Source: a virus. From it: a stretch of 64,000 bases of DNA. This document shows, one piece after another, positions 25,208-56,600 of this stretch (position 1 is its first letter; each line of letters opens with the position of its first letter). Below the pieces are notes generated by a model. It made no database searches. It worked only from the letters and a program-made list of their open reading frames with translations, and had not been told where the DNA came from. The translations under genes and the position numbers were made by a program. The DNA lies in the IMG/VR virus record IMGVR_UViG_3300033145_000192, positions 113,376 through 177,375 of that record. One strand, written 5' to 3'.

Positions 25208-26995
25208 CTAGAGCCTAGAAGCCCAACCACCAATATTGGGAACTACCTGTCTGGCCCCCATTGCGGTAAATGACCTCGCGGCATAAGAGGAAAGAAGCAT
25301 TGCAGAATACCTGTCCTTCCTTTGATATGTCTTGAGTGTCCCTTGCTGTGCAGAAGGCAAATCGGGCGTATCAAAGTGCTGAACGCCAGTCTTTGTTGAA
25401 GTTACGACAATCATGCACATCTCATTGATTTGCTCATCAATCTCACTCCATACATCTTCATGTTCCGCCTCAGAGAGTCCATCTCTTGAACGATTCGGGA
25501 ACAAGCACCTGTGGTGTTCGATATCTGCTAGAAGTCCATAGTTCGCTTCGCCAATCCATGTTGGAGTAAAGTTGACCATTTCAAGAATATGGCGACCTTC
25601 ATATCTCGCGGACTCGTCATCATCAAAGCGCCAAATCGGGGCCTCTCCAGGCTGTAGCATATTTGGGTCGCACAGCAAATCCTCAATCGTTGTTCCTCCA
25701 CCACCAGCATCCATCGCGATGTGGACGATGTTGAACTTGCTTAAAACGCTCCTTACTCTCCTGGTAGCCTCTGGCCACCTTTTACCGTTCATGCTTTCGC
25801 AATATACATTTCTGTAGGAACCGTCTTTCATCATCTTCACAACGCTAATTGCGAAGTTGTCGGTCTTACGAGCAGGGTCAATTCCCATAACGTAGTTGAA
25901 TCCTGGGGTTCCCTTTGTCTCAATGCAGAATCCAGGCTTTGGTGTAGAGTCGTTAATTGCGCTACGTCTTATGAAGCCATCTGAGTCTGTAGGGAAGACA
26001 CATTCATATTCCATTTGGAACAGGGCCTTTGGCATTGTTAGCTTGGCCTGTGCAATTTGTTTCTCATCCATGAACGAGCGAGGAAGTGCTTGGTATGGGA
26101 TTTGGATTATAGCATAGTCTCGATAATCAAGCGCACCATCCATAAGTGGGTCATCTTCTTCGAAATCGAGGTCTTTGCCTATTACCTTGCCATCTCCAAT
26201 TATCTTGTTATCTATGAGATACTTGTGAGCTAGGTAAACCTTGTAGAAGTGGTTGAACTGAAAATTGGCAGTTCCACTGTAGACAATTTGGTTGCCTTCA
26301 GTTTGCTGTCTATCCTTCTCCTCCATCCTGCCTTCTCTAATTGCCACCTCTTCCTTGTGGGTCTGCTTTGCTGCTTCAATGGGGTTTGCAGCTACAGCGG
26401 CGAAACCTCTAACAACGACCTGGAAGATTTCTGGTGGGATGGATGCAAACTCGTCCGTAAGGATATGCGTTGCACGAATACCACGGATTTTCTCACCATT
26501 GCCTAGCGGCAAGGCTTGGATTGTTGAATAGCCACAAGTCAACTTACGAGAATCACTTGGCTTCTCTGGGGCTCTTGAACAAGCTGCCCTGAAAATTGGT
26601 GAGTAGTTGTAAAGCTGCTCAATGTATTCAAAGACCAATTTCGACTGCCTGAACGAAGCGGCCACAATCACAATCTTCGACCCAGGCGTCAGCATGGCGC
26701 GTAAAACCGCGTAGACCGCTAGCATAAACGTCTTGCCACCACCACGGGTCATCAGTAGGATAGGGAAGGTCTTGCCCCACAGCGTTTCTAAAATTACGCT
26801 CTGGAATGGAGCTAGCTGGAGCGGCTGGCCACGCCACATTAGTAGATGGTAGGCAGCCCACGTCAGGTTCTCCAAACAAATGGCAGCGAACTCATCATAT
26901 GGGTCAGAGTATTTACCAAGATTCTCATAGAACGGATTTGTGAGTCTTGTTCCTTTTTCTATTTCATATGTGATTGGGAGTCTAATGCTTTTCAT
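25208..26995 (-). CDS. terL: Terminase large subunit
   Basis: Q motif (LQLAPFQ), Walker A TRGGGKT, Walker B ILTDEF, RNase H-like MGIDPAR and IAMDAGGGG, C-terminal KDRYSA. Confidence 0.92.
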   Translation of the reverse strand: MKSIRLPITYEIEKGTRLTNPFYENLGKYSDPYDEFAAICLENLTWAAYHLLMWRGQPLQLAPFQSVILETLWGKTFPILLMTRGGGKTFMLAVYAVLRAMLTPGSKIVIVAASFRQSKLVFEYIEQLYNYSPIFRAACSRAPEKPSDSRKLTCGYSTIQALPLGNGEKIRGIRATHILTDEFASIPPEIFQVVVRGFAAVAANPIEAAKQTHKEEVAIREGRMEEKDRQQTEGNQIVYSGTANFQFNHFYKVYLAHKYLIDNKIIGDGKVIGKDLDFEEDDPLMDGALDYRDYAIIQIPYQALPRSFMDEKQIAQAKLTMPKALFQMEYECVFPTDSDGFIRRSAINDSTPKPGFCIETKGTPGFNYVMGIDPARKTDNFAISVVKMMKDGSYRNVYCESMNGKRWPEATRRVRSVLSKFNIVHIAMDAGGGGTTIEDLLCDPNMLQPGEAPIWRFDDDESARYEGRHILEMVNFTPTWIGEANYGLLADIEHHRCLFPNRSRDGLSEAEHEDVWSEIDEQINEMCMIVVTSTKTGVQHFDTPDLPSAQQGTLKTYQRKDRYSAMLLSSYAARSFTAMGARQVVPNIGGWASRL

Positions 26996-27709: not shown

Positions 27710-28462
27710 TTATTCCCCTAGTAGAAAATCCATCTTACTCATATCGGCTTTGCACTTATTAGTGAAGTAACTCATCATGCCCGCTGTATTTCCAGCCTTG
27801 TTTCTATTTCTCGCATCAAGTAGCGAAGACACCATTCCTGTAATAGTTATCTTCTCTTCCCTATTGGCCTTGAGTCTTTGTTCTCTGGTAAGGTTCATGT
27901 CTTTGTGGTATTTAGCGTAGCGGCCCTCGGCATCATTTAGGTCTTTGTATAGATACTGAGGAGGTGGACGCTTGTCCTCATCATCACTTCCCCTGTATGC
28001 AGTTACGGCCTCAGCTATCTGTTCTTGAATTCGAAGAATTTGAATCTCCGTCATGAGCATGTTATGCAAAATTTCTTCTTCTTGCAATGTTATGCTATCG
28101 ACATTGTCCAAGAACTCGATGTATTTGTGCTTATAGTATGGAAGCTCATCGTCAATTAGAATCTTTAGCAAGAACGGATACCTGTGGTTCTTGTCGAACT
28201 GACTCTTGTAGAAGGCAATTCTATCGTCCTTTGATAGTGTTGCGAGCGAATACTCTGTTGGATTGGCAATTACTGCGGCCTTCTGGGTTTTCTTTGCTGG
28301 CCTACCAGCCCTCTTTGAAAGTCCCAGAGCTTTACGTCTGCGAGCTACAGACTCAGTCGTTCTACCAATCTCTTTGGCTATTTGTTCATCAGTGGTAGTC
28401 TGCCACTTATCACGGATTATTTGGTCTTCCCAGCCCTTGAAGTGGTGTTTCTTCTTCGACAT
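27710..28462 (-). CDS. Putative terminase small subunit
   Basis: N-terminal HTH-like TDEQIAKEIGRTTESVARRRKALGL, then coiled coil; upstream of TerL. Confidence 0.5.
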   Translation of the reverse strand: MSKKKHHFKGWEDQIIRDKWQTTTDEQIAKEIGRTTESVARRRKALGLSKRAGRPAKKTQKAAVIANPTEYSLATLSKDDRIAFYKSQFDKNHRYPFLLKILIDDELPYYKHKYIEFLDNVDSITLQEEEILHNMLMTEIQILRIQEQIAEAVTAYRGSDDEDKRPPPQYLYKDLNDAEGRYAKYHKDMNLTREQRLKANREEKITITGMVSSLLDARNRNKAGNTAGMMSYFTNKCKADMSKMDFLLGE

Positions 28463-35918: not shown

Positions 35919-36221
35919 TTAGGTGAAACACCTATTATTTGGGGCCTACACTATATCAGGGCCCCGCCGTAAGTCCTTTGTTTTCGACCACCGCTCTAAG
36001 TTCAATAATACCAGGGGGTTACGTAAAGCCTTTGTTTCCGACCCTTTCTTTTCATTTCACCGCCCCCATGAAATGAAATGCTTATCTCCTTTGTTTGCGA
36101 CCGCCCGATTTCTGGCACCCCCAACCCCTTGCCCTGTAAGGGTTTACGGCGGTGACCGTTTTCCGGCACCCCCAACCGCCCGATTTCCGTCGCCCCGCAC
36201 CGAAAACAAAGGAGTTATGAC

Positions 36222-36240
36222 TGGCACGGGACGTGCTATA
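36222..36240 (+). promoter_or_regulatory. Sigma54-type promoter (-24/-12)
   Basis: TGGCACGGGACGTGCTATA, exact GG-N10-GC spacing. Confidence 0.7.
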
Positions 36241-36499
36241 GGTAGGGTGGCGGCGCGGGGTCGGGTGCGACCCAAAAGCGTCCCGCTCTTTGACAATTCG
36301 GCTCATTTGCGTGTCACGGTGGGGGGCCTTGCGCCTCATTTGTGACGCACGGACCACGTCGAGAGACGTATCTGGAACCGAGACCCGCCGGAGGCTGAGA
36401 CGCTTCTGACACCTACGGGGGCGGCAGGAGGGACGCAAATGAGACGGCCTTGAAACGCAACGGGTCGCCCTGAAGGCAGGGAGTCGCAAATGCGACGAA

Positions 36500-36516
36500 T
36501 CCGGTTCGAATCCGGA
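36500..36516 (+). other. T-loop hairpin TCCGG-TTCGAAT-CCGGA
   Basis: tRNA T-loop consensus closing a 5-bp stem, ahead of the first early gene. Confidence 0.55.
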
Positions 36517-36583
36517 ACGACCCATGACACGTTTCACCATGCGTCTCACAGAAAGGGACGCAAATGACACGAAGGAGGAGGAG

Positions 36584-36814
36584 ATGAAACGAATGCGGCC
36601 TGTCACTGAGACGATGGCACGCATCTGCGACGAATGTGACGGGTTGGGTTTCGTTCCGCGACACTCAACTGGAACGAAAGTGACACTGGTCGAGGCGCAT
36701 ACGGCACAGAAATGCGACGAATGCGACGGCTTCGGGCTGGTGGCACGCAAGCGAGACGAATCCACCCTGACTGAGACGATTCTGCGACTCAAAACCCTCT
36801 ACGAAACGAACTGA
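36584..36814 (+). CDS. Small Zn-finger protein (two CxxCxGxG repeats)
   Basis: CDECDGLG and CDECDGFG; GGAGGAGGAG RBS. Confidence 0.7.
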   Translation: MKRMRPVTETMARICDECDGLGFVPRHSTGTKVTLVEAHTAQKCDECDGFGLVARKRDESTLTETILRLKTLYETN

Positions 36815-36823
36815 GAGACGGAA

Positions 36824-37333
36824 ATGACACGCTTCTGGACCATTGCCCACGACGATAAGGTTTCAAATGCGTCCCACGAACACCTAACCCTTGCGTTTCA
36901 CGACGATGGGACGATTGCGGTTCGAACCAAGACCGTCTCAGAAGGGGCTCATATGCGTGACACTTACGAGTCATGCGGCTCCTACGGTCGGTGGGATACG
37001 GGTCACCGTTGGGTCGAATTCGACTCAAGCTGCACCGCATTTGACATGGCTTCGGTTGCCATGCAACGCGAGTGGAACGTAACGGTTCTCAACTGCAACG
37101 CAAGTGACTCGGATTGGGGTCACATCAGTTTCATCGAGTGCGACGGAAACGTCACCGACCCGGATACGTTGCGCGGCATGGGACGCAACAAAGACGCGGA
37201 CGCCGATGAGACGAGTGCGACACGCAAGCGGAACGGAAACAGCCTCATGCGGTTCGGCGGGTGGAACGCAACGCGGGTCGTAAATGACAAGGCTCTGGCA
37301 CGAGCCAAGGCTGCCGACGCGGCACGCAACTGA
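36824..37333 (+). CDS. Hypothetical early protein
   Basis: 169-aa ORF. Confidence 0.65.
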   Translation: MTRFWTIAHDDKVSNASHEHLTLAFHDDGTIAVRTKTVSEGAHMRDTYESCGSYGRWDTGHRWVEFDSSCTAFDMASVAMQREWNVTVLNCNASDSDWGHISFIECDGNVTDPDTLRGMGRNKDADADETSATRKRNGNSLMRFGGWNATRVVNDKALARAKAADAARN

Positions 37334-37375
37334 CACGAACGGTGCTCGGGGCGGGTTCGACTCCCGCCCGTGTCA
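37331..37375 (+). other. T-loop hairpin inside a TGACACG/CGTGTCA stem (tRNA top-half mimic)
   Basis: GGGCGGG-TTCGACT-CCCGCCC at 37349-37369. Confidence 0.7.
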
Positions 37376-37432
37376 TTTCGGTTTCACCATACGTGCCACC
37401 CAGAGGCACGCAAACAGAACGGAAGTTTCAAA

Positions 37433-37651
37433 ATGAAGAACATTCACGACCTGCGAGACGCATTCGACACGATTCAGGCTGCGGCACGAGACGGAAAACG
37501 AGCCTGCAACGGATTTGAGACGCTAGAGGCGTCCTGCGTGTTGGACCACGATATGCTGGCCAGCATACTCCTGAGCGTTGAGGAGCAGTTGCGTCTCATT
37601 GCGGACCACGCGAACCGGAGCCTGGGACAAACCGCTATCCGAATCGACTGA
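37433..37651 (+). CDS. Hypothetical early protein
   Basis: 72 aa from MKNIHDL. Confidence 0.6.
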   Translation: MKNIHDLRDAFDTIQAAARDGKRACNGFETLEASCVLDHDMLASILLSVEEQLRLIADHANRSLGQTAIRID

Positions 37652-37677
37652 CACGCATCTGAGACGGACGGCTTCTA

Positions 37678-37706
37678 GGGTCGTAGGGTTCGATTCCTTA
37701 CGACTC
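37678..37706 (+). other. T-loop hairpin
   Basis: GGGTCGTAGGG-TTCGATT-CCTTACGACTC. Confidence 0.7.
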
Positions 37707-37761
37707 ACTTGCGGTTCACAATCCGTGAAACGCACAACTGCCTGGTGGCAAAGGATTTAGC

Positions 37762-38355
37762 ATGAACGTCAGAAAGAACGCGCTTCGTCTCATGGTCGTC
37801 CGCAACGCAACTGAGACGGAGTTCGCTGCCCAGTTCGCCTACCGCACCGCACCGCTCGGCTCGACGGGACGCAAATGGGACGCAATGATGGACGACGGCT
37901 GGTGGAGGGGCGACGGTAACGAGTGGGTCAAGGTCTACAAGGGTATCAGTGAAACGCATTTGAGCCCGGACGACTACAACTACCTCTCGTGGGACGAAAT
38001 TGACTCGATTCTGCGACGAGAGACCATTCGGTGCGTAAGCGTGTCAACGACTCGTCTGCGGCGTGTTCGGTCTCACTTGCGTATCACCGAGGCGTCGTCC
38101 TTCGGTGGCAACGTGGCCCGCAGGGTTCGGTGGCTCAAGGACATGCGGGACGAAGCGGAGCGAAACGCATTTGAGGCGAACGTCCTGCTCTGCTCCGATA
38201 TGGACCAGTTGGCCGTAACTCCCGGCGACGAGTGGGATTACACCTACAACCCCGAGACCTACGGTTGGGACCACAGCGAGCCGTCCGGGTCATTTGCGTT
38301 CCAGAACCGTGCCAGCCACGAGTTGACCTTCGACGACATGGACGACTGCTTCTAG
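37762..38355 (+). CDS. Hypothetical early protein
   Basis: 197-aa ORF, AAGGA RBS. Confidence 0.65.
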   Translation: MNVRKNALRLMVVRNATETEFAAQFAYRTAPLGSTGRKWDAMMDDGWWRGDGNEWVKVYKGISETHLSPDDYNYLSWDEIDSILRRETIRCVSVSTTRLRRVRSHLRITEASSFGGNVARRVRWLKDMRDEAERNAFEANVLLCSDMDQLAVTPGDEWDYTYNPETYGWDHSEPSGSFAFQNRASHELTFDDMDDCF

Positions 38356-38374
38356 CAGACACGCATTGGTGACG

Positions 38375-38403
38375 GAGGCGGTAGGTTCGATTCCTGCCGT
38401 CTC
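38375..38403 (+). other. T-loop hairpin
   Basis: GAGGCGGTAGG-TTCGATT-CCTGCCGTCTC. Confidence 0.7.
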
Positions 38404-38458
38404 ATTTGCGTCTCAATTATGGGACGCTTAACGGCCTGGTGGCCAAGGTGACACGCAT

Positions 38459-38698
38459 ATGAGTATCTTCCTGAACGGCGAGGCGTATGAGCAGGACATG
38501 GCCGAGACTGTCGTTGAAACGCAAGTGGAACGATACACCGGCAACTGGGAAATGAAGGACGGCAGCCAGCCCGTTGGCATGGTGACCGGAATGAGACGGA
38601 AGGACAGTTTGTCCCGTTTGCGTCTCACCGACTCCCAGGCCAAGTTCTTCCTCAGCGACACTCACTGGGATATCTACTGGGAGGTGTTCACCGACTGA
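38459..38698 (+). CDS. Hypothetical early protein
   Basis: 79-aa ORF. Confidence 0.6.
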   Translation: MSIFLNGEAYEQDMAETVVETQVERYTGNWEMKDGSQPVGMVTGMRRKDSLSRLRLTDSQAKFFLSDTHWDIYWEVFTD

Positions 38699-38736
38699 TA
38701 CGCATTTGAAACGAACCAACGTCGGTTTGTTTCAGA

Positions 38737-38765
38737 GGGATAGACGGTTCGATTCCGTTTGTCTC
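38737..38765 (+). other. T-loop hairpin
   Basis: GGGATAGACGG-TTCGATT-CCGTTTGTCTC. Confidence 0.7.
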
Positions 38766-38809
38766 TTTTGCGTCTCACAATGAGGCGCAGCAATGCCTGG
38801 AGGCACGCA

Positions 38810-39040
38810 ATGAACACGTATCTGCTCACGGTTTGGGACGGAAGCAACGCAAATGGGCTCGGCCAGACCTACAATCTGGGGCGCAGCAACGGGCTCTACA
38901 CCCCGATTCAGCAGGCTGGAACGATTCTGGCACAGTGGCACGCAAATGGCACGAACGAGTGGACGTGCAACGATAACGGGGCGTGGGAGAACCTGGAGAC
39001 GGGCCACAAGGCGCAACTGAGCCGAGTGCTGGGCCGCTAA
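38810..39040 (+). CDS. Hypothetical early protein
   Basis: 76 aa from MNTYLL, GGAGG RBS. Confidence 0.6.
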   Translation: MNTYLLTVWDGSNANGLGQTYNLGRSNGLYTPIQQAGTILAQWHANGTNEWTCNDNGAWENLETGHKAQLSRVLGR

Positions 39041-39089
39041 ACGCAAGTGAGACGAATCAACTTCTAGCCTGAAACGCAAAGGAAACGAA

Positions 39090-39314
39090 ATGCTGAAAAG
39101 TGAACTGATAGAGGAAAACAAGCGGCTGCACGATACCGTCGATTACCTTCGGTCGCAGTTGCGTCTCATACCGCACAGTCGTTTCGAGAAGTATCGGCAC
39201 GCAAAGGACACGAACGAGACTCTGGCCTACCGCAAGTGCGCCCAAGAGGTAGACTCGCGCTGCCTCGCCGCACTGAGCCACGCAACTGACATACAAGACG
39301 GTTGCACCGACTAG
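39090..39314 (+). CDS. Hypothetical early protein
   Basis: 74 aa, AAGGA RBS. Confidence 0.6.
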   Translation: MLKSELIEENKRLHDTVDYLRSQLRLIPHSRFEKYRHAKDTNETLAYRKCAQEVDSRCLAALSHATDIQDGCTD

Positions 39315-39562
39315 GCGACACGCATTTGAGACGGACCTGAGCATGTCGTTAAACTGCTCGGTTTCTTTTGCGTCTCACAACTGGCCAGGCCAGGGGGCAG
39401 TCTGTCTATAATGAATCAGCGAACGACACGCAAATGCAACGTATCTTCTCTAGCAGTTACGAATGACACGCAAATGCTACGAATGCTTTCGTTTCACCAT
39501 ACGTCTCACGAGAATCCGCCCGAGGTGTTCACGCATAAGGAGTAAATGACACGCAAATGAGA

Positions 39563-39724
39563 CCCACTACATATGGTATGCTATTTGTTATGACACGCAA
39601 ATGAAACGCTGTTGTTCCCTACGGGGAGATTGGCATGATTCCAACACAACTAAAGGAGTTACAAATGAGACGCAAATGCAACGAGCACCTGCGCCATTCT
39701 AATACACCCCCCATATGTAGTGGG
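39563..39724. repeat. Perfect 14-bp inverted repeat CCCACTACATATGG / CCATATGTAGTGGG
   Basis: Arms at 39563-39576 and 39711-39724. Confidence 0.85.
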
Positions 39725-40004
39725 TTGGCACGCAAGAGAGACGCAACGAGCCTATGAAACGCATTTGTGACATAAAATCAATTCGTTTCACTATACGTCT
39801 CACGGAAAGCCGCCCGAGGTGTCTGGGGAGAGGGAGGAAACGCAAATGAGACGAGAGCCGCAAATGAGACAAAAGCCTCCGCTGCGCTGCGTCATGCTTC
39901 TTTTCATTTCACCTTGCAACGCATTTGTGGAGCAAGGCTACCTAAAGGCTTTACAGCGTTTCACTTACGTCTCAGATGTTGCACCGTATGTGACACGAAG
40001 ACTT

Positions 40005-40020
40005 TGGCACGGGATTTGCT
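40005..40020 (+). promoter_or_regulatory. Sigma54-type promoter
   Basis: TTGGCACGGGATTTGCT, essentially the consensus. Confidence 0.75.
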
Positions 40021-40114
40021 TAGGGGGCGGCTGGCGGCTGGCCGACGTAACTCTATACGCCACGTCTAAGCCATTGTGCCCACTAGCTTTATGAACTCAG
40101 TGGACCTTGGGGTC

Positions 40115-40130
40115 TGGCATGGCATTCGCT
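40115..40130 (+). promoter_or_regulatory. Sigma54-type promoter
   Basis: TGGCATGGCATTCGCT, GG-N10-GC. Confidence 0.55.
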
Positions 40131-40261
40131 TAGTGAGACGTATCTGACCCATGACACGCATAACTCCTTTGTTTTGGCAATGAGACGTATTGTGGTGTCC
40201 AGCCGGACACTGTAGCCAAATGGACACCACTGGAATCATTAGAGTTACGTCAAATACCCTC

Positions 40262-40280
40262 TGGCATGGGACGTGCTATA
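40262..40280 (+). promoter_or_regulatory. Sigma54-type promoter
   Basis: TGGCATGGGACGTGCTATA, near-identical to the 36222 site. Confidence 0.7.
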
Positions 40281-40511
40281 GCTTCCCTGTCGGCCAACGG
40301 CAACACGGGAGGAAAGGTAAGGTATCACGGGGGTTACGGGTGTCATTGTGATACCCTCCCATGATACTAACCCTAGACTCGCCAGCATATTCGGGAGGTA
40401 AGCCTAACCCCTATTCGCAGGAATCGTGTCAAAACGGTCCCGAGCGAGCCATAAATGAGACGGATTGTCGCCAAAAGGCTACAGCGTCCACGCAACGGGG
40501 GGAGTTAGGTT

Positions 40512-40528
40512 TGGCATTCGGCGTGCTA
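40512..40528 (+). promoter_or_regulatory. Sigma54-type promoter directly upstream of the large ncRNA
   Basis: TGGCATTCGGCGTGCTA, preceded by GGAGTTA as in the other copies. Confidence 0.65.
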
Positions 40529-40537
40529 CTGTGTTCC

Positions 40538-41425
40538 GTAACGCTAACTTGAGAGGGTAAAGCGAGCCACTATACCGCCCCATAAACGGGATTCCGACTG
40601 ATAGCGGGATAATGATTCTATCAGGGTTTTATACTAACCGGCGTTAAAAGCGTTGGACGTATTGTGGACCTTAGCACGATACGTAGGGTTCCCCTGGCGG
40701 GGAATACAAAGGTTGTATGGTCTACTGTGCAAGGTAGCTTAAGCCATACAACCGGGGGCGGTAAGCCGAGATACTGGCTTGCTCAATGTCGTAAGACTGC
40801 CCTGTAAAAGCGACGGCGCTTGCCCAAAGTATTTAGGCTTTAACCTATAAGGTTGCGGTAGGGGTTGGAATCAGGATACCCTGAGCGAGTAGACTAGGTT
40901 AGAGTTTCTGCCATGCGGGCGACAAGCCGATTGTTAAGCGGCTCGCGTGGATAGGTTGGCAAACCTATAACCCTGTTTTGGTGGGGTATATGGTGAGCTA
41001 TGGCCGACTGTTGGGAGCGTGGCGCAAGCTACGCCAGTCGGTTATCTCGCTAGTCTGTGCAAGCGGACCTTGTATATCCTTTTAATGAACGGGGCCTAGC
41101 CCGAAACGTCCGTTTCCGTTAGCTAGACACGGTTTCGCCTCTATTCGCCTATATCCGTGAGTCGTTTAGACTCGTGGGCTACCTAACTTGGTAGGTTACA
41201 GGATACCGCAAGGTCTCCCCAATACCGTAAACCCAGGGGCCTACAGGATAGCGGGCGATTGGCGATAACACGGTCCATAATGCGTTGATACCAAGGGACT
41301 CCAAACGGAGTTATTAAATCCCGTGAACGGTTTATGCCGGAAACAATGGCTTATTAGGGCAGGGTTCAAGGGGTCATATCCCCTGGCAGGGTTTTTGCCG
41401 CCACCATTCGGGAGGCGGCTTTTTT
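40538..41425 (+). ncRNA. Large (~880 nt) highly structured non-coding RNA, class unknown
   Basis: No credible ORF; many hairpins with GNRA loops; long-range helices 40657-40670/41272-41285 and 40581-40593/41317-41336; promoter before, terminator after. Confidence 0.8.
41397..41425 (+). terminator. Intrinsic terminator
   Basis: GCCGCC...GGCGGC-TTTTTT. Confidence 0.75.
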
Positions 41426-42185: not shown

Positions 42186-42213
42186 CGTCTCACGTTGGGA
42201 CGATTTTGAGACG
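42186..42213. promoter_or_regulatory. Inverted motif pair CGTCTCA-N14-TGAGACG (candidate upstream activating site)
   Basis: Centred about 75 bp upstream of the -24 element at 42276. Confidence 0.55.
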
Positions 42214-42274
42214 GAGTGTAGCCCGCTGGAAACAGTCGGGCTTGCTTTGTTTCGGAAGCAAACGAGTTACGCTT

Positions 42275-42295
42275 TGGCACGTCGGGTGCTATAGG
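42275..42295 (+). promoter_or_regulatory. Sigma54-type promoter
   Basis: CAAACGAGTTACGCTT-TGGCACGTCGGGTGCTATAGG. Confidence 0.75.
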
Positions 42296-47141: not shown

Positions 47142-47242
47142 TTCCACGTCTGGCCGAGTAGAGCAAACACGCAAAAACTCATTCCAGAATATGAATCTGA
47201 CCTGTAAGGGTTAGCTTTACTCACTCGGGCGTGGTTCAAATA

Positions 47243-47269
47243 CGTCTCACTTGGGGCGTTTCTGAAACG
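47243..47269. promoter_or_regulatory. Inverted motif pair CGTCTCA-N13-TGAAACG (candidate upstream activating site)
   Basis: Closely resembles 42186-42213, including the spacer; centred about 65 bp upstream of the 47320 promoter. Confidence 0.55.
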
Positions 47270-47318
47270 GAACGTCGCCATTTGGCTACACTACCACCGA
47301 CTGCAAAGCACTTATGGC

Positions 47319-47335
47319 TGGCACGCCTTGTGCTT
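47319..47335 (+). promoter_or_regulatory. Sigma54-type promoter
   Basis: CAAAGCACTTATGGC-TGGCACGCCTTGTGCTT. Confidence 0.7.
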
Positions 47336-56352: not shown

Positions 56353-56600
56353 TGTTCCCGTGGAGTTTCCACGCCTGCCCCAAATGTGGCGTGAAAGACG
56401 GCTCGCCTGACGGTAAACAATACTGTCACAAGTGCGAGATAGAGTATCAGAAGGATATGGGTGAGGAGGTTAGAGAGGCCAAGCGTCTCATTTCCGACTC
56501 ACAACGTCTCAATCCGTGAAACGATTGTAGCCAAACGGCGACAGTAGCCACGGATTCCAAAGGAGTTACGAACGGCACGAGATGTGCTTAAAGGACTACC

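Follow-up and report, generated by a model that had tools for sequence, protein, structure and literature searches.

In an uncultured phage genome of 177 kb, the early gene arm opens with 4 kb that carry a dense array of a bipartite 18-bp site, here called site A, in which two TGRVACG half-sites are separated by a 4-bp gap. Within the window (the whole stretch of 64,000 nt that was analysed), 62 full copies fall in 36299..40151, whereas the 173 kb that make up the rest of the genome have 8. Site A is a DNA-level signal, helically phased and kept in the phage family. Judging from sequence, it may bind a host regulator acting at a set of downstream sigma-54-type promoters, the block serving as an enhancer reservoir or a sink, a reading to which we give slightly less than an even chance.

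A previous sequence-only reading had listed 13 exact copies of ACGCAAATG in the block. All of these were present, together with one that had been missed, at 38847. The 14 copies in the window compare with 0.56 +/- 0.70 expected from shuffles of the whole window, and the 173 kb outside it in this comparison have a single copy. A scan with a matrix built from two distant relatives only gave 52-59 site A matches in the block, 160-200-fold above the rest of the genome. The motif had also been described as repeating head-to-tail every 11 bp. Autocorrelation of ACG in the block does peak at lag 11, with 36 pairs compared to ~7 at other lags, and is flat in a control region. However, the period is mostly internal to the 18-bp site (30 pairs, 3 triples and no longer run), and long runs were not found. 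Adjacent copies of site A keep a phase of 10.4-10.5 bp (p 0.001-0.02), and there is a 48:14 bias toward the transcribed strand (p 2e-5). The density was expected to peak in the non-coding DNA at 39.3-40.2 kb, but is flat across 36.25-40.2 kb, at 14-17 per kb; only the perfect copies cluster, at 39.4-39.85 kb.

Since coding sequence makes up two thirds of the block, we considered the possibility that the array arose by chance, from protein composition or through an assembly artefact, but this was refuted by the presence of sites in each of the three forward frames and in two of the reverse ones, by synonymous shuffling (27 observed against 4.2 +/- 1.7, scored with an independent matrix trained on two distant relatives only), by the same excess in different genes of relatives L007 and L274, and by the presence of the array in independent assemblies. 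The enrichment thus survives the control for codon and amino-acid content that the sequence-only reading had named as decisive. As to constraint on synonymous sites, which it had also proposed as a check, third-position conservation relative to L001 lacked significance when the five alignable ORFs were all included (p 0.14) and reached p 0.015 only in the three best-aligned ORFs, a subset picked afterwards. Frame independence, the synonymous tests, the phasing and the conservation in relatives with other genes support a phased DNA-level array and a candidate array of protein-binding sites, reflecting strong selection at the DNA level that overwrites fast-changing genes.

Eight relatives, whose terminases are 51-91% identical, carry 4-56 copies of site A in the equivalent slot, partly in unrelated genes, and two relatives that lack sigma-54 elements in the region have 0-1 copies. 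Counting against a role at sigma-54 promoters, a small cluster in G001 occupies the slot with no consensus sigma-54 element, and the clusters in G003 are distant from its sigma-54 elements. Kilobase arrays of site A were found in IMG/VR in this phage family only, and no similar DNA was found in cultured phages.

The block contains seven ORFs, rather than the six counted previously, and 14 copies of site A lie beyond the last of them (Table 1). The sigma-54-type element that heads the block has an equivalent in position in L001, L274, G005 and G003. The IHF-like site at the left arm of the inverted repeat differs from the E. coli consensus at 2 positions. The stems of the T-loop hairpins are often made of inverted site A halves. 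The non-coding stretch is retained even where relatives carry few copies of site A, and both palindromes within it, which we take to resemble NrdR boxes, persist in L001 and L007. Within the block, sigma-70 sites are no more frequent than chance would give. Site A itself is ruled out as a degenerate -24 box, because the G required at -24 is mostly A.

Table 1. Features of the site A block and of the promoter cassettes downstream of it (positions in the window).
Feature	Position	Strand	Remarks
IHF-like site and left arm of 28-bp inverted repeat framing the array	36203..36230	.	partner arm 40148-40175
Sigma-54-type -24/-12 element heading the block	36221..36237	+	lacks an upstream site A or B in this phage
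Site A array	36299..40151	48 sites +, 14 sites -	consensus TGRVACG-CAWN-TGRVACG
ORF, 96 aa, CXXC zinc-ribbon-like	36524..36814	+	6 site A copies within
ORF, 169 aa, no assigned function	36824..37333	+	6 site A copies within
Intergenic hairpin capped by tRNA T-loop, 1 of 5	37331..37375	+	others near 36503, 37687, 38384, 38746
ORF, 72 aa, no assigned function	37433..37651	+	L001 homologue 86% identical
ORF, 197 aa, no assigned function	37762..38355	+	L001 88% identical; 7 site A copies within
ORF, 79 aa, no assigned function	38459..38698	+	
ORF, 76 aa, no assigned function	38810..39040	+	
ORF, 74 aa, no assigned function	39090..39314	+	homologues in L001, L007
Non-coding part of array	39315..40220	.	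holds best-consensus site A copies
NrdR-box-like palindrome	39561..39578	.	second copy 39705-39722
Two more sigma-54-type elements, right edge of block	40004..40130	+	at 40004 and 40114; without site B
Promoter cassette	40181..40277	+	A half-sites, site B 40211, -24/-12 at 40261
Promoter cassette	40425..40527	+	A half-sites, site B 40466, -24/-12 at 40511; L007 likewise
Promoter cassette	42186..42290	+	A sites, site B 42217, IHF-like, -24/-12 at 42274; L007 likewise
Promoter cassette	47232..47334	+	A sites, site B 47273, -24/-12 at 47318
Promoter cassette	56484..56588	+	A sites, site B 56526, IHF-like, -24/-12 at 56572

The sequence-only reading had noted that, outside the block, the motif persists beside sigma-54-type promoters. 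This was correct and turned out to be the key clue. Six such promoters downstream share one cassette, comprised of one or more A half-sites, a site B, usually an IHF-like site, and -24/-12 elements that match the sigma-54 consensus GG-N10-GC. A half-sites were present 35-125 bp upstream of all six plus-strand sigma-54-type promoters beyond the array, with at least two in five of them, against a background of 0.5% of windows (p ~1.5e-11, for a pattern first spotted by eye), and these upstream copies occur in both orientations. Site B is a palindrome, TGT-N12-ACA, located 45-57 bp upstream of the promoter and nearly absent from the array. The distance from its start to the promoter falls into classes of 45-46, 50 (one case) or 56-57 bp, which hold in this phage as well as in L007, L274, G002 and G003, and in five of the six cassettes an A half-site lies 2-4 bp before it. 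Judged by position, the cassettes carry a candidate upstream activator site, site B, at a fixed, phased distance, with site A adjoining. The IHF-like element is a recurrent AT-rich motif just upstream of -24 that does not fully match the E. coli consensus.

To open, sigma-54 promoters require an AAA+ activator. No sigma-54 activator was found in the phage genome, whose sole AAA+ gene is an ordinary RuvB, and a phage that uses such promoters and encodes no activator must recruit that of its host. Host sigma-54 polymerase would thus be held closed on the phage promoters until a host AAA+ activator engages it, presumably by way of sites B and A upstream. Site A would be the recognition site of one dimeric helix-turn-helix host protein, either the enhancer-binding activator itself or a partner bound beside it. 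The ~60 copies over the first gene block may concentrate this protein there, so that the array would fire the left-edge promoter from downstream and the right-edge promoter cluster from upstream, and may draw the protein off host promoters as the phage DNA multiplies. It could also be that site B alone is the enhancer and that site A serves another protein. Known activator sites are mostly palindromes, while direct repeats in a 7-4-7 layout are what winged-helix proteins typically bind. Of the five options for the protein landing strip that had been proposed, enhancer or sponge nevertheless appears best supported, because of the fixed place of site A in the six cassettes and the lack of a recognizable phage activator. 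The centromere option is disfavoured, since a search for the ParB type of partition system found no such gene in the phage. Nor was a tyrosine integrase gene found in the phage, as integrase arm sites (attP) would call for.

In its strongest form, which we regard as possible but rather unlikely, the preferred reading describes a phage super-enhancer, with dozens of phased sites for a host enhancer-binding protein written through the genes at the head of the arm. A family of large lytic phages would then run its first genes on host sigma-54 with no activator of its own, and the array would both fire the phage promoters and strip the activator from host genes. The six-fold cassette (A, B, IHF-like, -24/-12) and the 60-site array are in any case ready bait for naming the factor and, probably, the host as well.

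The cassettes resemble bacterial sigma-54 promoters (PrpR, GlrR, NtrC and Desulfovibrio activators) in their -24/-12 elements, IHF-like site and TGT-N12-ACA palindrome, and in having sites within 100 bp (PMC4987338, PMC4641369). TGT-N12-ACA is a documented class of activator site (PMC4641369), the GlrR site is TGTC-N10-GACA (PMC4987338), and the PrpR enhancer, CGTTTCATGAAACG, contains an A half-site. Unlike the bacterial promoters, those described here are on a phage with no activator of its own found, site B lies near the promoter (centred at about -63 or -74), and there is an additional direct-repeat site in ~60 copies through seven genes, where bacteria have few. Pseudomonas phage YuA also has a sigma-54-type promoter, with a mapped start (10.1101/2023.10.13.562163), although a single one, and the part of that account available to us mentions no upstream cassette or site array. 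Our partial coverage of the literature on phage enhancer arrays yielded nothing beyond YuA.

Alternatively, the block could lie at the leading end of the virion DNA or form its terminal repeat, with site A organizing entry or packaging, as in the T5 first-step-transfer region or as an array for the terminase small subunit. Several features are consistent with this: the block heads the early arm at a strand switch, its borders are sharp and framed by the inverted repeat, its genes are small and fast-changing and give way to a conserved stretch of non-coding repeats, the contigs of several relatives terminate in or shortly beyond it, and the non-coding cluster persists in G001, where the sigma-54 elements have decayed. 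The contig of this phage is circular, with a 114-bp overlap. ORF 27710-28462 is likely the terminase small subunit; it has a predicted N-terminal three-helix bundle that locally and weakly resembles the GcrA DNA-binding domain (E 4.1), and a fold search gave no match at E 0.001. A 236-aa protein had no match in the Atlas. The T5 region likewise has small early genes followed by conserved non-coding repeats with boxes for a host factor (DnaA), and acts as an injection stop signal that is thought to organize DNA entry (10.1101/866236). However, the T5 repeats are in untranslated DNA, whereas site A runs through genes and recurs at distant promoters; its fixed place in cassettes 2-26 kb away is left unexplained, and one relative has no site A at all. 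We consider this explanation unlikely, although, if it proved right, the array would bear on the control of DNA transfer in large phages, which is unsettled even for T5.

Site A might also be an operator or roadblock for a phage or host repressor that silences the first block, along with the sigma-54 promoters, once the early phase is over. The site is asymmetric and biased to the transcribed strand, one copy sits at each of the seven stop codons in the block, and at each promoter one copy touches site B, where a repressor would block an activator. The analogy is mycobacteriophage L5, with many asymmetric, transcription-oriented operators and intergenic stoperators, found at promoters and gene junctions (PMC9283540). 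L5, however, encodes its repressor, and its 20-30 sites are scattered across the genome, while here the 60 sites are restricted to 4 kb at the early head, a quarter are reversed, many lie within genes and 14 lie past the last one. Overlap with stop codons is cheap, since site A contains TGA. No Fis-type HTH, OmpR-type wHTH, XRE or HTH_36 domain was found in the phage genome. A divergent repressor or an unrecognized phage protein could still bind site A, but we consider a repressor improbable.

Slightly more improbable again is a field of replication-origin iterons, with secondary origins coupled to the promoter cassettes. Unrelated phages have ~14 lambda-O/DnaD-like initiator genes that carry the exact 18-mer in their linker (codons 105-145), the genome-wide GC-skew minimum (34501) is 1.8 kb from the block, and IHF-like and NrdR-like boxes are present. 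However, those iterons are few, span <150 bp and lie inside the initiator gene, while site A is spaced 30-150 bp over 4 kb with no tight cluster. The block has a GC content of 49-59% and lacks an AT-rich unwinding stretch, and the skew switches where the coding strand does. Neither BLAST nor profiles of 15 initiators carrying the 18-mer found a homologue in the phage genome, which weakens the iteron option of the sequence-only reading.

Action as RNA, with the early transcript carrying a signal for protein binding or processing, would agree with the strand bias and with the T-loop stems built from half-sites, but is very improbable given the two orientations upstream of promoters and the phasing to the helical repeat of DNA.

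Searches of 121 Myxococcota and 26 Kiritimatiellia genomes did not turn up the cassette, site B and cassette patterns had no sigma-54-linked match in Planctomycetota, Acidobacteriota, Myxococcota or Kiritimatiellia, and IMPDH homologues, as a clue to the host, had no taxa attached. Among viral contigs, the composite of sites A and B gave chance matches only. Elsewhere, iterons and SARP-type targets carry this 18-mer, and, of 152 loci where it occurs exactly, only 2 were close to a sigma-54 element, which counts against the preferred reading. In its favour, a Methylomonas genome has the exact 18-mer across the start of a gene for a sigma-54 activator, with a divergent sigma-54 element ~110 bp away.

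The early arm of this phage is headed by a conserved, phased array of a DNA-level site (the block, 36299-40151), and six promoters beyond the array carry a fixed cassette of upstream sites. Alignment of the motif variants yielded an 18-bp site, site A, consisting of two 7-bp TGRVACG halves at an 11-bp interval, with CAWN between them. The strong enrichment noticed in the sequence-only reading was borne out: ACGCAAATG occurs 14 times in 36300-40200 versus once in the remaining genome, and site A matches scoring at least 12 bits number 62 in the block and eight outside. Because the first matrix was derived from the block, it was rebuilt from two distant relatives only; the resulting scan, a check which that reading had proposed, gave 52-59 block sites, an enrichment of 160-200-fold. 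Autocorrelation of the block showed a strong peak at lag 11, in agreement with the proposed 11-bp periodicity, but the head-to-tail runs are short, the array containing 30 pairs, three triples and nothing longer. Nor does the density peak in the non-coding 39.3-40.2 kb, as had been suggested; it is flat across the block, at 14-17 sites per kb, and falls to zero beyond 40.2 kb. Distinct sites separated by up to 160 bp are phased with a period of 10.4-10.5 bp (p = 0.001 at 10.4 bp; 0.014-0.019 when the search over periods is allowed for). The trend is alike in the related uncultured phages L001, L007 and G003, and absent at 10.4 bp in another, G005.

The motif had been thought to run through six ORFs; it does lie within genes (30 sites), of which there are seven, and occurs in every forward frame and in two of the reverse frames. 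Synonymous shuffling left 4.2 ± 1.7 sites versus 27 observed (maximum 10 in 1000 shuffles). The excess is likewise seen in L007 and L274, whose genes in the corresponding slot are mostly unrelated. The predicted synonymous constraint appeared as a weak trend towards better conservation, in L001, of third codon positions within sites. The array is a signal at the level of DNA. Five hairpins with tRNA T-loop caps, each after the stop codon of an array gene, are candidate processing or antitermination signals; their stems vary in sequence between copies and in L001, with pairing preserved.

Coordinates of features in the window (or in the whole genome, where stated)
Feature	Position	Strand	Remark
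Virion genes (terminase, portal, capsid)	left of 35 kb; terminase 25208-26995	minus	
Ribonucleotide reductase gene	left of 35 kb		
Conserved 250-aa gene	27710-28462		two genes upstream of terminase; likely small terminase subunit, with a three-helix bundle at the N terminus followed by long helices
Small genes	right of 36 kb	plus	
Sigma-54-type elements	36221, 40004, 40114, 40261, 40511, 42274, 47318, 56572, genome 2172	early	generic sigma-54 consensus
T-loop hairpins	36462-38770		
mascRNA match	37316-37374		weak (E 0.46)
NrdR-box-like palindromes	39561-39578, 39705-39722		conserved in L001, L007
Stretch behind 40511 promoter	40540-41420		~0.9 kb, no credible ORF, no Rfam match; equivalent in same slot of L007
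RuvB homologue (L036)	genome 9131-10066		full-length; conserved in relatives G001, G002
Glycosyltransferase, nucleotide-sugar and sulfation genes (L039-L040)	genome 58-90 kb		extended series

The contig is a complete genome of 177,375 bp, in which the GC skew changes sign where the coding strand switches. A similarity search against cultured phages found none resembling it, and terminase homologues delimit a family of 165-180-kb uncultured phages. In the same slot, at thresholds of 11-12 bits, the relatives have 56 sites (L001, terminase 91% identical), 43 (L007, 81%), 46 (L274, 65%), 25 (G005, 62%), 25 (L272, 60%), 16 (G003, 59%), five (G001, 61%), four (G002, 51%), one (G004, 58%) and none (L273, 59%). 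As in the window, the array crosses genes in L007 and L274, and in L274 sigma-54-type elements flank it on both sides. The clusters in G005, L272, G003 and G001 are non-coding, and four of the five strong sites in the whole G001 genome lie within 400 bp of the slot. No sigma-54 elements were found in the slot of L273 or G004. Within IMG/VR, kilobase arrays of site A were found only in this family.

Sigma-70 sites within the block are at chance level. Outside the array, the motif adjoins sigma-54-type promoters, as the sequence-only reading had it: all six have A half-sites upstream, five of them two or more (background 0.5%). All six also carry site B, an 18-bp palindrome (TGTMGCC-N4-GGCKACA) that starts 45, 45, 45, 46, 50 or 57 bp upstream of the element (45-46 or 56-57 bp in L007, L274, G002 and G003) and is nearly absent from the array. 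An A half-site lies 2-4 bp upstream of B in five of the six cassettes, and an IHF-like AT-rich motif usually just precedes the -24 element. The first promoter (36221) has neither A nor B upstream in this genome. Sigma-54 polymerase requires an upstream-bound activator, frequently together with IHF; PrpR has the enhancer CGTTTCATGAAACG, and GlrR recognizes TGTC-N10-GACA (PMC4987338). [quoted passage not shown] In Acidobacteriota, small toxin-antitoxin-like operons of two genes (L223, L227, L230, L234) have a B-like palindrome overlapping their promoter, so the format of B is not confined to sigma-54 activators. Sigma-54-like promoters are already known in phage YuA (10.1101/2023.10.13.562163); the part of the literature covered contained no description of such a cassette of upstream sites in a phage, or of an array of binding sites that runs through early genes.

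Quite possibly, a host regulator active at these sigma-54 promoters binds site A, and the block would concentrate this regulator, boosting the promoters on either side and titrating the protein away from host DNA. No sigma-54 activator, Fis-, OmpR-, XRE- or HTH_36-type domain, integrase or ParB was detected in the phage genome. Elsewhere, the exact 18-mer recurs beside DNA-binding proteins: within ~14 O/DnaD-like initiator genes, near ~8 Schlafen/RecG-C genes with a C-terminal HTH, adjoining four BTAD or STAND-TPR regulators and, in one case, spanning the start of a sigma-54 activator gene that faces a sigma-54 element. On this evidence, the format is compatible with a helix-turn-helix dimer with 11-bp spacing but points to no specific protein. 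Sites A and B both begin with TG and have G at position 13 and AC near the end, so one activator might read both. Counting against a host regulator at A, B is possibly the sole enhancer, and G001 and G003 retain A away from sigma-54 elements.

The latter observation, together with the sharp array borders and the contig breaks, would also fit a role in genome ends, entry or packaging, with a parallel in T5 (10.1101/866236), although we consider this unlikely. Roadblocks like those of L5 (PMC9283540) would fit the orientation bias of the sites and their presence at the stop codon of every ORF in the block, an overlap due in part to the TGA within site A; such a role is more doubtful still. Still less probable is a replication origin, for which site A is identical to iterons and the GC-skew minimum is suitably placed, but no initiator was found in the phage genome.

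In many unrelated small phages (L044, L047, L054, L056, L058, L062, L065, L066, L071, L072), the 18-mer marks linker repeats of the initiator gene, always at codons ~105-145. Up to 13 TGAAACG/TGAGACG copies in 10-11 bp steps (L085:6342-6480, L086:7543-7690, L147:6122-6400) adjoin Schlafen/RecG-C/HTH genes of Kiritimatiellia and other bacteria. At the right edge of the L007 array, three sigma-54-type elements (L007:2260-2460), oriented opposite to the early genes, point into the array and are possible decoys; the two corresponding elements in the window point outward. The NrdR-box-like palindromes, possibly decoys for the host reductase repressor, are ~145 bp apart, unlike the boxes at nrd promoters, which are spaced 31-32 bp (PMC2892513).
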